From: an uncultured Gemmatimonadales bacterium
Lineage (GTDB): Bacteria; Gemmatimonadota; Gemmatimonadetes; Gemmatimonadales; GWC2-71-9
Direction: 5' to 3'
Assembly: GCA_963828735.1 (NCBI GenBank)
Contig: CAWHFW010000002.1
Location: forward strand, 928,001 to 992,000
Length of the DNA: 64,000 nt
Shown here one piece after another: positions 2,958-23,968 of the stretch. The position numbers and the translations under genes are program-made. Each line of letters starts with the position of its first letter. Positions within the stretch are counted from its first letter, which is position 1. The notes under the pieces were generated by a model. It was not told where the DNA came from and made no database searches. It was given only the letters and a program-made list of their open reading frames with translations.

Positions 2958-3632
2958 ATGCCGCGAAGTGTGATGCTGGCGCTCATGGTCCTCGGCTTCG
3001 GCGCGGGCGCTGCCAGTGGCCAGGCGACCGCCGATTCGGCCAAGAACCCGCTCGCGGGCCGGCTGCTCGGCTCGGCCGGGGCGACGGTGACGGTCTACGA
3101 GATGTCCGATTTCCAGTGCCCCTACTGCCGTGACTTCGCGACCAACACCTGGCCCGCGGTGTACTCCGCCTACGTGGCGACCGGCAAGGTGCGCTGGGCC
3201 TTCGTGAATTTTCCGATCACGACCATCCATCCCAACGCCGCGGCCGCCGCCGAAGTCGGCCTGTGCGCTGCGCAGCAGAACGCGTTCTGGAAGGTGCACG
3301 ACCTGCTCTACCGCCATCAGGATGTCTGGGCGCCGCTCAAGGAGCCGGCGGCCTTCTTCGTAACGCTGGCCGATTCGGCGAAGCTGTCGAAGCCGGCGCT
3401 GCTCGCGTGTCTGCAGTCGCCAGCCACACAGGCGGCACTCGAAGCGGATGCCAAAGGCGCCGAGCGCTCGGGCGCCAACAGCACGCCGACGTTCTACATC
3501 GAGGGCGGCCTGCTGGTGGGCGCGCAGCCGTTGCCCATCTTCCGGCAGGTACTGGACTCGATTCTGAAAGTGAAGGGGCCGGAGAAGGGACCTTCGCCTG
3601 CAAAGGCACCGTCCCCGACGAAGCCGAAATAG
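2958..3632 (+). CDS. DsbA/thioredoxin_4 family protein
   Basis: Signal peptide, SDFQCPYC, HPNA..AAE and STPTFYI motifs. GGAGG RBS. Confidence 0.9.
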   Translation: MPRSVMLALMVLGFGAGAASGQATADSAKNPLAGRLLGSAGATVTVYEMSDFQCPYCRDFATNTWPAVYSAYVATGKVRWAFVNFPITTIHPNAAAAAEVGLCAAQQNAFWKVHDLLYRHQDVWAPLKEPAAFFVTLADSAKLSKPALLACLQSPATQAALEADAKGAERSGANSTPTFYIEGGLLVGAQPLPIFRQVLDSILKVKGPEKGPSPAKAPSPTKPK

Positions 3633-3675
3633 AGTTGGCGGGACGAGGCCATGACCGCCAGGCTGTCGCGACCCG

Positions 3676-4452
3676 TTAGATACCCGCGACCGCCAGGAAC
3701 ACGTCGTACAACGCGTGGGTCCAAGCCGTGATGCCGAAGCCGCGAAGCAGATACAGCCCGCTGAACAGGACGCCGGCGATGGCCCGGAACGCGAACGACG
3801 CCAGCTCCAGGTGATCCCCGTAGGGTCCCACGTAGTGAAACGCCGAGAAGATGAGCGCCCCGACGAGCGTCGCGAACACGCCCGCCGCGCCGGCGCTCCA
3901 GCCGAACAGGCGGCCGGCGAGCCACGCGAGCGCGCCCACGATCAGCACCCGAAAGAGCAGCTCCTCGTAGATGCCGGCGCCGAGCGAGATCATGAGCTGG
4001 GTCGCGAGGCCAAGGCCGTCGGATCCGATCCGGAGGGCACGCGACGGCAAGGCGGAGGCCGCCACCGAGGGGTGGAACGGTCGGAGCAGCAGCCCCGTCA
4101 GCGTGCCCACCACCAGGCCGAAGACCAGCGCGTAGAGCACGGACTCCAGCGCCATCAGGACGAACACGCGGGCCTCGAGCGGGCCCGACCGACGCCGGTC
4201 GCGCCACGCGAGAGCCAGGCCGGTTCCGACCAGCAGCACGCCGAACGCGATCAGCCCGTTCCGTCCGCCGAGCAGGATGAAGGCGCTCTTGAGGAGGACG
4301 TCCGCCCCGTTCCGGACGCCGGTCATCGCCTCGTGCGACAGCGTGAACGCCAGCGCCTCGTACGCCACGAGAAGCGGAAAGGCGAAGGTCACGCTGTAGC
4401 GCGGGGCGCGACTCGCGTGCCAGTAGCGGCTGGACGATGAGGCGAGGGTCAT
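3676..4452 (-). CDS. CPBP (Abi/Rce1-like) intramembrane metalloprotease
   Basis: EELLFR, FSAFH and WTHALYD motifs with multiple TM segments. Confidence 0.9.
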   Translation of the reverse strand: MTLASSSSRYWHASRAPRYSVTFAFPLLVAYEALAFTLSHEAMTGVRNGADVLLKSAFILLGGRNGLIAFGVLLVGTGLALAWRDRRRSGPLEARVFVLMALESVLYALVFGLVVGTLTGLLLRPFHPSVAASALPSRALRIGSDGLGLATQLMISLGAGIYEELLFRVLIVGALAWLAGRLFGWSAGAAGVFATLVGALIFSAFHYVGPYGDHLELASFAFRAIAGVLFSGLYLLRGFGITAWTHALYDVFLAVAGI

Positions 4453-4468
4453 GTGAGGGGGAAAGCGG

Positions 4469-4499
4469 AAAAGAAAAAGGGGCCGCGCTCGGCGGCCCC
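4469..4499 (-). terminator. Rho-independent terminator
   Basis: 8-bp stem GGGGCCGC/GCGGCCCC (4479-4499) followed on the minus strand by TTTTTCTTTT. Confidence 0.8.
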
Positions 4500-4618
4500 C
4501 CCAGGTTCCAAGTGTCGCCCGGGTCTCAGCATGCAGTGCCGTTCAGCAGCCGCAGGCGACCCTTGACTCTGTAGACAATGGATCACCTCCTCGGTAGCGG
4601 GTAGAACATATGGTGCGT
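4469..4618 (-). ncRNA. Candidate small RNA / small-ORF transcript
   Basis: Bounded by a sigma70-like promoter and an intrinsic terminator. Contains a 13-nt complement of the 16S 3' end and an 8-bp internal stem (4514-4521 with 4553-4560). Confidence 0.5.
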
Positions 4619-4624
4619 GAGTGA

Positions 4625-4654
4625 ATAGTAGGAGCCTCACCCGCGGCGCGGCAA
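4625..4654 (-). promoter_or_regulatory. Sigma70-type promoter for the candidate sRNA
   Basis: TTGCCG-18 nt-TACTAT on the minus strand. Confidence 0.55.
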
Positions 4655-4733
4655 GTCCTGGCTTCGACACGAGCACGCAACGAACCCGCATCGCGCATTG
4701 ACGCCCACCGCCGCTGCCACAACATTTGCCCGG

Positions 4734-6041
4734 ATGCCCTCCACCTCGATCAGCTATCGCGCCGTGGTCCGGGTGGGCGTCGCGCTGGCTCCCGCCATCG
4801 GCCTCGTCAATCAGAAAGTGGGCGACGGTCATCGCCGACGACGGGGTGCCGCGGATCGTCTGGCCTGGTGGGCCACATCGAGCCGAGACCGAACGCGCCC
4901 GCTCGTGTGGTTCCACGCGGCGTCCGTGGGCGAGGGTCGCCAGGCGGAGAGTGTGCTGCTCGAGCTCCAGCGGCTCCAGCCGGCCTGCCAGGTCGTCTAC
5001 ACCCACTTCAGCCCATCCGCCGAGCCGCTCGCGCGGCGCCTCGCCGTCGACGCCGCGGATTACCTGCCCTACGACCGCCCAGCCCAAGTCGAGCGCCTGC
5101 TCGACGCGCTGGCCCCCGACCTGCTGGTCTTCGCCAAGCTCGACCTCTGGCCCGAGCTCGCCACACGCGCGGCCGCGCGCGGCGCCGGCGTGGCCCTGGT
5201 CGCCGCGACGGTGAGCCCGGGAAGCGGTCGCTTGCGGTGGCCCGCCCGACGCCTGCTCCGCGCGGGCTACGAGGTGGTCCAGGCCGCCGGGGCGATCGCC
5301 GAGGCCGACGCGGCGCGTCTCGCGATCCTCGGCGTCGATCCTGCGCGGACCCGTGTCCTGGGCGATCCGCGCTTCGACAGCGTGGCAGCCCGCGTGGCGG
5401 CCGTGGCGTCGGACGACCCGTTGCTCCGGCTTGGCGACGGCGCGCCGACGCTGGTGGCCGGGTCGACCTGGGGGACGGATGAAGCGGTCCTCCTCGGCGC
5501 CTTCGCCGCGATACGCTCGCGGCGCGCGGACGCGCGCCTGATCGTGGTCCCGCACGAGCCGACGCCCGACCACCTGGGCGTCCTCGATCGGCGCGCCGCG
5601 GCACTCGGCCTCCCCGTGCCGGTTCGACTGAGCGCCGGCGGTGGCCCGGCACCGCTGCTCGTGGTGGATCGCGTGGGCATGCTCGCGACACTCTACGGCG
5701 CGGCAACGATGGCCTATGTCGGCGGCGGATTCGGCCGCGCGGGCCTTCACTCGGTACTGGAGCCCGCGGCGTGGGGCCTGCCTGTCGCCTTCGGGCCGCG
5801 ATGGCGCGAGAGCCGCGACGCCGGACTGCTGATCGAGGGCGGGGCGGCCGCGGCACTGGATGACCGGGACGCGGCGGTCACGTCGCTCCGGCGGATCTGG
5901 GAAGGTTGGCTGACGAACGAGGAAGGGCGTCGAACGGAGGGGGCGCGCGCGCGGGACATCGTCACCGCTGGACTCGGCGCAGCCGGGCGGTCCGCCGAGA
6001 TGCTGGCCGAGCTTATTTCGTCACGACCCCCTCGAAGGTGA
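4734..6041 (+). CDS. waaA: 3-deoxy-D-manno-octulosonic acid (Kdo) transferase
   Basis: WFHAASVGE, YLPYD, VAGSTW, IVVPH and YVGGGF...HSVLEPAAWG motifs. Confidence 0.9.
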   Translation: MPSTSISYRAVVRVGVALAPAIGLVNQKVGDGHRRRRGAADRLAWWATSSRDRTRPLVWFHAASVGEGRQAESVLLELQRLQPACQVVYTHFSPSAEPLARRLAVDAADYLPYDRPAQVERLLDALAPDLLVFAKLDLWPELATRAAARGAGVALVAATVSPGSGRLRWPARRLLRAGYEVVQAAGAIAEADAARLAILGVDPARTRVLGDPRFDSVAARVAAVASDDPLLRLGDGAPTLVAGSTWGTDEAVLLGAFAAIRSRRADARLIVVPHEPTPDHLGVLDRRAAALGLPVPVRLSAGGGPAPLLVVDRVGMLATLYGAATMAYVGGGFGRAGLHSVLEPAAWGLPVAFGPRWRESRDAGLLIEGGAAAALDDRDAAVTSLRRIWEGWLTNEEGRRTEGARARDIVTAGLGAAGRSAEMLAELISSRPPRR

Positions 6042-17236: not shown

Positions 17237-17309
17237 GGGGGCGTAGCTCAGTTGGGAGAGCGCGTGAATGGCATTCACGAGGTCAGGGGTTCGATCCCCC
17301 TCGCCTCCA
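17237..17309 (+). tRNA. tRNA-Ala(GGC)
   Basis: Cloverleaf with G3:U70, anticodon loop AT-GGC-AT and GTTCGAT T-loop. No encoded CCA. Confidence 0.96.
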
Positions 17310-17374
17310 CTCCTCGGCGCCGCACGAGCGTGGTCGGACCAGCGCGACAGCATGGCGGGCGGTGCACGACGGCG

Positions 17375-17403
17375 TTGCGCGGCCGCTGAGCGGACGCTAA
17401 ACT
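17375..17403 (+). promoter_or_regulatory. Sigma70-type promoter for the tRNA-Gly/fMet/Val/Arg run
   Basis: TTGCGC-17 nt-TAAACT just upstream of tRNA-Gly. Confidence 0.5.
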
Positions 17404-17414
17404 CCAGGCCGCTT

Positions 17415-17487
17415 GCGGGAATAGCTCAGTTGGTAGAGCACAACCTTGCCAAGGTTGGGGTCGCGGGTTCGAGTCCCGTTTCCCGCT
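17415..17487 (+). tRNA. tRNA-Gly(GCC)
   Basis: GCGGGAA/TTCCCGC acceptor stem, anticodon GCC, discriminator U. Confidence 0.97.
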
Positions 17488-17505
17488 CTCTGAAAAGGCA
17501 TACGT

Positions 17506-17579
17506 CGCGGGGTGGAGCAGTCTGGTAGCTCGCCGGGCTCATAACCCGGAGGTCGTGGGTTCAAATCCCACCCCCGCTA
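17506..17579 (+). tRNA. tRNA-fMet(CAT), initiator
   Basis: C1:U72 mismatch, GGG/CCC anticodon stem, anticodon CAT. Confidence 0.96.
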
Positions 17580-17589
17580 TTGCAGGACC

Positions 17590-17662
17590 GAGAGGACGGA
17601 GACGCCGGAGAGGACGGAGCAGCCGATCCGCCTCGACGCCATCTCCGTCCTCTCCGTCCTCT
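17590..17662. repeat. Short direct and inverted repeats in a tRNA spacer
   Basis: GAGAGGACGGAG at 17590 and 17608, with inverted copies CTCCGTCCTCT(C) at 17643 and 17652. Confidence 0.7.
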
Positions 17663-17665
17663 GAC

Positions 17666-17739
17666 GGGCGGTTAGCTCAGTTGGTTAGAGCGCCACGTTG
17701 ACATCGTGGAGGTCACAAGTTCGAGTCTTGTACCGCCCA
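17666..17739 (+). tRNA. tRNA-Val(GAC)
   Basis: Cloverleaf with CCACG-TTGACAT-CGTGG anticodon arm. Confidence 0.96.
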
Positions 17740-17747
17740 TCACAGTC

Positions 17748-17821
17748 GCGCCCTTAGCTCAATTGGATAGAGCATTTGACTACGGATCAAAAGGTTGGGG
17801 GTTCGAGTCCCTCAGGGCGCA
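17748..17821 (+). tRNA. tRNA-Arg(ACG)
   Basis: Cloverleaf with TTTGA-CTACGGA-TCAAA anticodon arm. Confidence 0.96.
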
Positions 17822-17980
17822 TCCCCACGTCATTGTCGCAACGCCCCGGCCCTGCGCCGGGGCGTCGTCGTTTCCGGACCTGGTCCACCACCTCGAGAGG
17901 CGCTTGGGAGAGCGGCGCCGACAAGCCCCGAGGGCTACCAATCGTGAGGGAGGGCATTACATTCACCGCTCTCCGGGACA

Positions 17981-18055
17981 CGGGGCGTAGCGCAGCCCGG
18001 TTAGCGCGCCTGCTTCGGGAGCAGGAGGTCCGGGGTTCAAATCCCCGCGCCCCGA
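17981..18055 (+). tRNA. tRNA-Pro(CGG)
   Basis: Cloverleaf with CCTGC-TTCGGGA-GCAGG anticodon arm. Confidence 0.96.
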
Positions 18056-23879: not shown

Positions 23880-23953
23880 GGGTCCGTAGCTCAGTTGGAT
23901 AGAGCGCTTGCCTCCGGAGCAAGAGGTCGCGCGTTCGAGTCGCGCCGGGCCCA
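23880..23953 (+). tRNA. tRNA-Arg(CCG)
   Basis: Cloverleaf with CTTGC-CTCCGGA-GCAAG anticodon arm. Confidence 0.96.
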
Positions 23954-23968
23954 CTCTGGAAGGTTTTC

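Follow-up and report, generated by a model that had tools for sequence, protein, structure and literature searches.

A conserved free-standing mini-gene with an extended Shine-Dalgarno sequence in Gemmatimonadota

Introduction

Between divergent waaA and a gene for a CPBP-family membrane protease, an uncultured Gemmatimonadales bacterium carries a short minus-strand unit in which a complement of the 16S rRNA 3' end runs directly into a UUG codon. The question it raises is what is being maintained here: an RNA that acts on the ribosome, a micropeptide, or a leader that governs the protease gene. The initial annotation of the window (the whole stretch of DNA analyzed, 64,000 nucleotides) left these three choices side by side and rated the unit as its best candidate for an undescribed system. 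That last characterization has to be given up: elements of the same kind were published in 2016/17 for Alphaproteobacteria, namely rreB of the Bradyrhizobiaceae and rreR of the Rhodobacterales, which are small mRNAs with an extended Shine-Dalgarno (SD) sequence (Hahn et al., RNA Biol, PMC5711450).

As described in the sections of that paper drawn on here, rreB has a 17-nt complement of 16S rRNA, co-sediments with 30S subunits, is very weakly translated and has its SD in a predicted hairpin; a 5' AAA extension is crucial for its ribosome association; and its decay is start-codon-dependent, with a half-life that rises from 10 to 37 min on loss of the start codon (PMC5711450). In the same sections analogues are given only for Alphaproteobacteria, and the supplement text mentions neither Gemmatimonadota nor CC2171, an Rfam family discussed below. 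The rre mini-mRNAs have stayed unexplained since that one paper. Our literature searches, which covered open texts, found no report of such RNAs outside Alphaproteobacteria and none on Gemmatimonadota small RNAs of this kind: 'rreB' with 'Shine-Dalgarno' matched PMC5711450 only, 'CC2171' with 'Caulobacter' matched one preprint, the matches listed for the 13-nt complement were unrelated by title and likely concern 16S primers, and no discussion of rre was found in the portions of PMC10117765 drawn on.

Anatomy and conservation of the element

All sequence features named in the initial annotation, i.e. promoter, 13-mer, UUG-started 11-codon ORF, hairpin and terminator, are present on the minus strand at the coordinates collected in Table 1, and together they define a predicted RNA of ~150 nt. 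The two promoter hexamers are separated by 18 bp, and the UUG lies 7 nt 3' of GGAGG. The leader is C/A-rich. An Rfam scan of positions 3500-5800 returned no family at gathering score, the best match being CC2171 (22.8 bits against a cut-off of 75, E 0.036), and ARAGORN found no tRNA or tmRNA in the same interval; the view that the RNA is not 6S, tmRNA, SRP or RNase P RNA thus agrees with the lack of any covariance-model or ARAGORN match.

Table 1. Features of the element and its flanking genes, in window coordinates
Feature	Position	Strand	Remarks
waaA (Kdo transferase), divergent, outside element	4734-6041	+	PF04413; also flanks 14- and 19-21-codon versions
-35 hexamer TTGCCG	4649-4654	-	predicted sigma-70-type promoter; TTG-led, exactly 18 bp from TAnnnT in 29/37 genus loci
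-10 hexamer TACTAT	4625-4630	-	TAnnnT 38-43 nt 5' of SD core in 32/37 loci
5' leader	4592-4618	-	predicted start ~4618, from the -10 position
8-codon upstream frame	4583-4609	-	intact in 22/37 loci; no SD 5' of frame
Extended SD, 13-nt 16S 3'-tail complement	4579-4591	-	abuts start codon; core invariant in 28/28 aligned loci
11-codon ORF, UUG start	4543-4578	-	11 codons in 30/30 loci; stop TGA/TAG/TAA
Anti-SD within ORF	4554-4560	-	predicted partner: SD (closed state) or 4514-4521 (open state)
Small hairpin, stop codon in loop	about 4533-4553	-	predicted, 4+4 bp interrupted; outer 4 pairs invariant, no covariation
6-bp hairpin holding SD look-alike in closed state	4500-4523	-	predicted, consensus fold
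SD look-alike, 3' UTR	4514-4521	-	alternative anti-SD partner in SD-open minimum-energy fold
Intrinsic terminator	4469-4499	-	8-bp G+C stem 4479-4499 and U-run 4469-4478; terminator scan and consensus fold
CPBP/Rce1-like membrane protease gene, outside element	3676-4452	-	PF02517; starts ~17 nt after U-run

Matches to the region were recovered in 30 of 36 same-genus genomes. In all of the 30 fetched genus loci, that of the window included, the ORF has 11 codons, with a stop that alternates between TGA, TAG and TAA. An alignment of 28 loci (all but the truncated L006 and the unpublished L021) has no indel in the ORF and several in the leader, which tolerates 1-nt indels, and in the 3' UTR; nucleotide invariance across it is near-total and exceeds coding needs, and the SD core is invariant throughout. 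The promoter keeps its position among 37 distinct genus loci while its spacer varies in sequence (29/37 at the same distance), and a generic promoter consensus scan found none at the element. Five loci (L017, L018, L025, L028, L041) show no such promoter at this distance, and their leader is of a different, A-rich kind, which suggests a longer 5' region or another promoter. The element is a real, conserved, free-standing gene. Its description as a self-contained unit that binds 30S subunits stands as to its own promoter and terminator, and 30S binding via the extended SD is a likely prediction. Only one of the two tiny ORFs originally proposed fares equally well: the 11-codon ORF is kept in all of the fetched loci, whereas the 8-codon upstream frame lacks an ATG in 8 of the 37 loci and differs in length or end in 7, and is probably incidental.

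The 16S complement and the start codon

The 13-mer is perfectly complementary to the tail of the host's own 16S rRNA, as had been proposed from the conserved 16S 3' end, with exactly 13 Watson-Crick pairs (the 16S gene used, L224, is 96-99% identical to full-length 16S genes of the genus). Under an order-3 Markov model, chance alone would give 0.006 exact copies per window and 0.4 per genome; the genome has two, not counting those of the two 16S genes. The second lies on the minus strand at G000:C5:2538756-2538768 (L221:1989-2001), in an intergenic region just upstream of an oppositely oriented gene; it has TAG in place of the start codon, followed by a hairpin, and no Rfam match was found at the site. 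An ordinary gene for a 177-aa lipoprotein-like protein (G000:C5:2114169, plus strand; L222:1501-2045) has a 12-nt 16S complement running into its ATG, one base closer to the start than in the rre spacing.

The first base of the start codon was left free in the search pattern, and a hand count of the 67 exact matches of the phylum scan gave TTG in 60, GTG in 7 and ATG or CTG in none. Complementarity of at least 16 nt, measured against the tail of this genome, is seen in 7 of the 99 elements from Gemmatimonadota and in 92 of the 104 from elsewhere. As the three bases 5' of the start codon, the class has CCA, CAA, CCC, CTA, CAC or CTC; hence the full duplex is not under selection. This bears on the proposal that the RNA stores or sequesters 30S subunits, with the ORF serving only as the release step. 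The 13-bp match, the weak start codon in 67/67 exact matches, the co-sedimentation of rreB with 30S subunits (PMC5711450) and the single copy in most matching genomes would all suit such a role, but besides the variable pre-start bases it has to contend with an SD that is predicted to be hidden, and with a 20-fold overproduction without growth effect and RNA copies far fewer than ribosomes, as described by Hahn et al. (PMC5711450). We regard subunit storage as improbable.

Relationship to rreB, rreR and CC2171

The likeness to rreB and rreR extends over several features: a stand-alone unit with promoter and terminator whose context is not conserved between clades, a weak start codon that lies 7 nt behind the SD core and is immediately preceded by the 16S complement, and a short ORF with a clade-specific peptide. 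As in rreB, the SD and start codon are predicted to be hidden in a hairpin, which here comes from a consensus fold (probability 0.70, no covariation). The element differs from them in its 13-nt complement, as against 16-17 nt, which falls below the 16-nt minimum of that class and lacks the 5' AAA extension, and in its UUG rather than GUG start, its 11 codons and its phylum. Apart from its ribosome-binding site and internal anti-SD, it has no sequence similarity to them.

CC2171 (RF01867), filed in Rfam as a Caulobacter sRNA, has a consensus that opens with the same extended SD followed by NUG-UCU. Its members above the gathering score (L181, L187, L197) contain frames of 22-25 codons, and rreB- and rreR-type loci score 34-52 bits on its model, with 20.8-31.3 bits for the other Gemmatimonadota elements. 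The family hence looks, from these sequence matches, like an rre-type RNA that was entered as non-coding. The element of the window differs from it in that only its ribosome-binding site and terminator are matched, with the RNA body unaligned. Since it lies below both the 16-nt minimum and the CC2171 cut-off, we file it as a variant working like rre, and not as a member. The alphaproteobacterial groups recovered here fit the rreB and rreR small mRNAs; the rreB-type loci (L180, L201) were recognized by lineage, GTG start, 14 codons and an adjacent tRNA, and not by comparison with the published figure. Ordinary mRNAs of Staphylococcus aureus likewise combine extended SD-anti-SD pairing with weak start codons in the sections of PMC13009471 drawn on; unlike the present element, which is a terminated micro-ORF predicted to pair back on its own site, these are normal genes.

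Distribution across the class and other phyla

When one mismatch was tolerated, the SD-spacer-start motif matched 133 of 301 genomes of the phylum, against 3 control hits; when the 3-base spacer was left free, it matched 159 of 301 genomes of the class, against 1 control hit. Most of these genomes have one copy. The class, Gemmatimonadetes, was assigned by named relatives, and absence of a match (142/301 genomes) does not equal absence of the element. The same 11-codon version occurs in two named Gemmatimonadales records (L117, L193), by which the window is assigned to that order. A scan of GTDB contigs gave an estimated ~4,900 stretches, with Alphaproteobacteria widely represented: among the 120 matches listed, 13 bore a Gemmatimonadota title and most of the rest an Alphaproteobacteria title. 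Single hits were titled Gammaproteobacteria, Planctomycetaceae, Cytophagales, Prochlorococcus and Streptomyces, and several of these seem to be due to chance or to misbinning of contigs.

We analyzed 203 distinct elements from 217 loci; the tallies include unpublished genomes (G003, G104, G449; L021, L048), on which no claim depends, and four one-mismatch matches that look spurious (L031, L032, L033, L036) were left out of the frame counts. The elements fall into the following groups: the 11-, 14- and 17-24-codon Gemmatimonadota subfamilies, a 14-codon Bradyrhizobium-type, an 18-codon Rhodobacterales-type and a CC2171-like group. The short ORF is kept within a clade and is unrelated between clades. 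Serine at codon 2 is partly imposed by the search patterns; proline or alanine occurs there in G091, G139, G150, G225 and G310 (among pattern matches only, the last letter of the pattern having excluded many members, 34/201). In L058 and L059 the gene for a PLP-dependent (PALP) enzyme is preceded by a divergent version of 25 codons that lacks the anti-SD hexamer described below.

Frame versus peptide

A stop codon is reached within 27 codons in all 98 Gemmatimonadota elements (one spurious match dropped; kin are not independent), against 50% expected from shuffles, and in 100 of 104 other elements against 54%. Viral contigs furnished a second control: after the same 18-mer, a short frame follows in 9 of 34 and a frame of more than 27 codons in 25 of 34. 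The other two frames are unsuitable as a control, because in one of them the conserved post-start bases bring about an early stop. Eleven viral contigs (L228, L232, L233, L235, L236, L242, L244, L246, L250, L251, L254) use the same extended SD and TTG start for the gene of a conserved 65-aa protein, and in three others (L225, L241, L248) the extended SD is followed by a 10-codon ATG frame that is identical among them, possibly a phage-borne rre-like element.

The residues behave differently in the several groups. In pairwise, non-independent counts, the synonymous share of single-base codon differences is 0.32 in the 11-codon subfamily (0.29 neutral) and 0.26 in the 20-codon subfamily (0.25 neutral), against 0.57 versus 0.27 in the 14-codon subfamily and 0.44 versus 0.28 in the rreR-type. 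Four of the first five post-start codons are rare in this genome, with shares of 2-4% by a rough estimate, and are invariant at free third positions. Loci beside waaA carry 11-, 14- and 19-21-codon versions. It thus seems, from these comparisons, that translation of the short frame is selected and its residues mostly are not.

A reading in which the 11-residue peptide itself is what the gene provides, with the odd ribosome-binding site serving just to limit its amount, would account for the conserved start, frame and stop with synonymous stop exchange, for the synonymous excess in the 14-codon subfamily and rreR, and for the weak translation of rreB (PMC5711450). It sits poorly with the lack of such an excess in the 11- and 20-codon subfamilies, the invariant rare codons and the change of length and sequence among versions at the same locus, and the synthetic RreB and RreR peptides are described as unstructured, with overproduction having no growth effect (PMC5711450). 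We give this explanation little credence. A highly translated Cys-x-Cys micropeptide, as first suggested, is not supported, on several counts: the last three residues are CGR in 21, CGC in 10, CGH in 6 and CGL in 1 of 38 loci, the frame opens with UUG behind an SD that is predicted to be hidden, and the similar site of rreB is very weakly translated (PMC5711450). A Cys-x-Cys metal motif was rejected on the same tally (CGC in 10/38 peptides). In the window, the UUG and the CPBP start share a reading frame; selenocysteine insertion or read-through fusion to CPBP was rejected because the stop alternates between TGA, TAG and TAA and several relatives no longer have the two in one frame.

Predicted folds and the internal anti-SD

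In the consensus fold the SD is predicted to pair with codons 7-9, followed by the stop-codon hairpin, the 6-bp hairpin and the terminator. If the SD is held open, the anti-SD is predicted to pair instead with the look-alike in the 3' UTR (-49.6 versus -60.7 kcal/mol, ensemble cost 9.8). No compensatory change was seen among 31 pairs in the genus alignment, because the RNA barely varies, and therefore the closed and the open fold are both predicted ones; the folding energy of the whole RNA is unremarkable (z -1.07). At one column, A/G variation leaves either of the alternative pairings intact, the variable pair of the 4500-4523 hairpin being A-U in 16 and G-U in 12 sequences. The median SD:ORF pairing probability is 0.70 (n 36) here versus 0.84 (n 9) in the rreB-type, and the cost of opening the closed fold 9.2 versus 10.4 kcal/mol.

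A hexamer able to pair with GGUGAU is present in 15/15, 14/14 and 39/42 distinct ORFs of three Gemmatimonadota subfamilies (expected 1.4, 1.4 and 8.7) and in 8/8 rreB-type ORFs (expected 1.6). It is found at different codons and in two reading frames across subfamilies, as would befit a motif acting at the RNA level. The anti-SD is weak or absent in rreR (7/24, expected 3.3) and in two Gemmatimonadota ORFs (0/2). Full-length 14- and 20-codon RNAs, folded where a terminator was detected (7/15 and 20/43), do not favor SD:ORF pairing (0.01 and 0.23). In the 14-codon subfamily (14 of 15 sequences aligned) the ORF:3' UTR helix covaries in 4 of 11 pairs, a level reached by 0 of 500 shuffles; its SD:anti-SD helix keeps 100% pairing, the sole changes being from G-C to G-U, and is too invariant for the shuffle control (500/500).

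Neighboring genes and transcription

The CPBP gene has no SD and no evident promoter, and since it starts so close behind the U-run it likely relies on read-through. It is present in 28 of the 37 genus loci, mostly within about 10-40 nt of the U-run. These observations, together with RNA-library contigs that span the terminator in 4 of 8 runs, are what speaks for a leader or attenuator in which translation controls read-through into the CPBP gene. The gene is however missing from the other 9 genus loci, in the 14- and 20-codon subfamilies 40 of 48 loci lack both neighbors, and many downstream genes are convergent. In the modeled RNA, opening the terminator costs 12.2, 13.2 and 14.6 kcal/mol with a free, an initiating and a terminating ribosome, respectively, and no modeled ribosome position favors an antiterminator. 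Attenuation of CPBP, one of the readings put forward at the outset, is accordingly very unlikely.

Transcription was looked for in public soil and rhizosphere RNA libraries, as assembled contigs from 8 of 24 listed runs, all 8 of them RNA runs. Contigs of close relatives cover the element in 7 of the 8 runs (word shares 0.06-0.23), the remaining one, X6, covering CPBP only. They stop at 4609-4610 without loose ends in X1 and X7, a weak signal, and 13 letters further in X13; they span the promoter in X3, X5 and X8 and the terminator in X1, X7, X11 and X13. The contigs are ambiguous as to a discrete RNA and give a weak hint at most.

A unit with its own promoter and terminator, variable neighbors and near-total nucleotide invariance beyond coding needs could also be a trans-acting sRNA or sponge, whose SD or exposed loops pair with other RNAs, e.g. 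sRNAs bearing an anti-SD, while translation controls its stability only. CC2171 is filed as an sRNA and was detected by Northern blot in Methylorubrum (10.1101/2022.01.24.477521, in the portions drawn on). The only seed common to the subfamilies is nevertheless the ribosome-binding site, and we consider a trans-acting RNA of this kind quite unlikely.

A proposed mechanism

We lean, with slightly better than even confidence, to a stand-alone rre-type mini-mRNA whose own 11-codon frame hides the extended SD, such that ribosome loading would open the fold and rare initiation would set the lifetime of the RNA, the peptide probably being a by-product. The conserved promoter and intrinsic terminator would yield the ~150-nt transcript. 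Its anti-SD in codons 7-9, itself conserved, would pair with the SD, at a predicted opening cost of ~9-10 kcal/mol. A 30S subunit is then predicted to displace the anti-SD via the 13-bp 16S duplex, with the SD look-alike of the 3' UTR capturing the freed strand. The long duplex, the UUG and the rare codons may make initiation slow, as shown for rreB with its GUG, and the ribosome that does initiate would run 11 codons and thereby lead to decay, the start-codon-dependent decay, like the ribosome binding, being carried over from rreB by analogy. The level or the fold of the RNA would in this manner report spare initiation capacity. For a ribosome-operated switch of this type counts the anti-SD hexamer, as a probable RNA-level motif. 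Against it would count, by analogy, the 13-nt duplex without the 5' AAA extension that is crucial in rreB, and also the synonymous excess in the 14-codon subfamily and rreR, which fits some selection on the peptide.

That a distant phylum shares the site, its spacing and the internal anti-SD, and keeps the frame but not the peptide, shifts the question from the role of the peptide to the role of ribosome loading, and links CC2171, an Rfam 'non-coding' family, to the rre class. The two alternative helices are sharply defined in the 11-codon version and are testable in vitro by a few point mutations. A bolder proposal, which we rate as rather unlikely, is that rreB, rreR, CC2171 and the Gemmatimonadota elements constitute one old, cross-phylum class of two-state RNAs with the ribosome as ligand: on 30S docking the internal anti-SD would leave the SD and pair with the 3' UTR instead, and the RNA in this flipped state, or a ribosome-cut fragment of it, would signal initiation capacity in trans. 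If this is true, the 11-codon version, the shortest and simplest seen here, would be its minimal model.

Other features of the genome

The contig that holds the window has two 16S genes, 33 kb apart and 82.8% identical to each other: G000:C2:13635-15182 (L223) and G000:C2:46434-47965 (L224). The former is only 81-82% identical to full-length 16S genes of the genus, as against 96-99% for the latter, and is hence probably foreign, by chimeric assembly or transfer. Six clustered tRNA genes (Ala, Gly, Met, Val, Arg, Pro) occupy positions 17237-18055 on the plus strand of the window, and a lone tRNA-Arg gene lies at 23880-23954 on the same strand.
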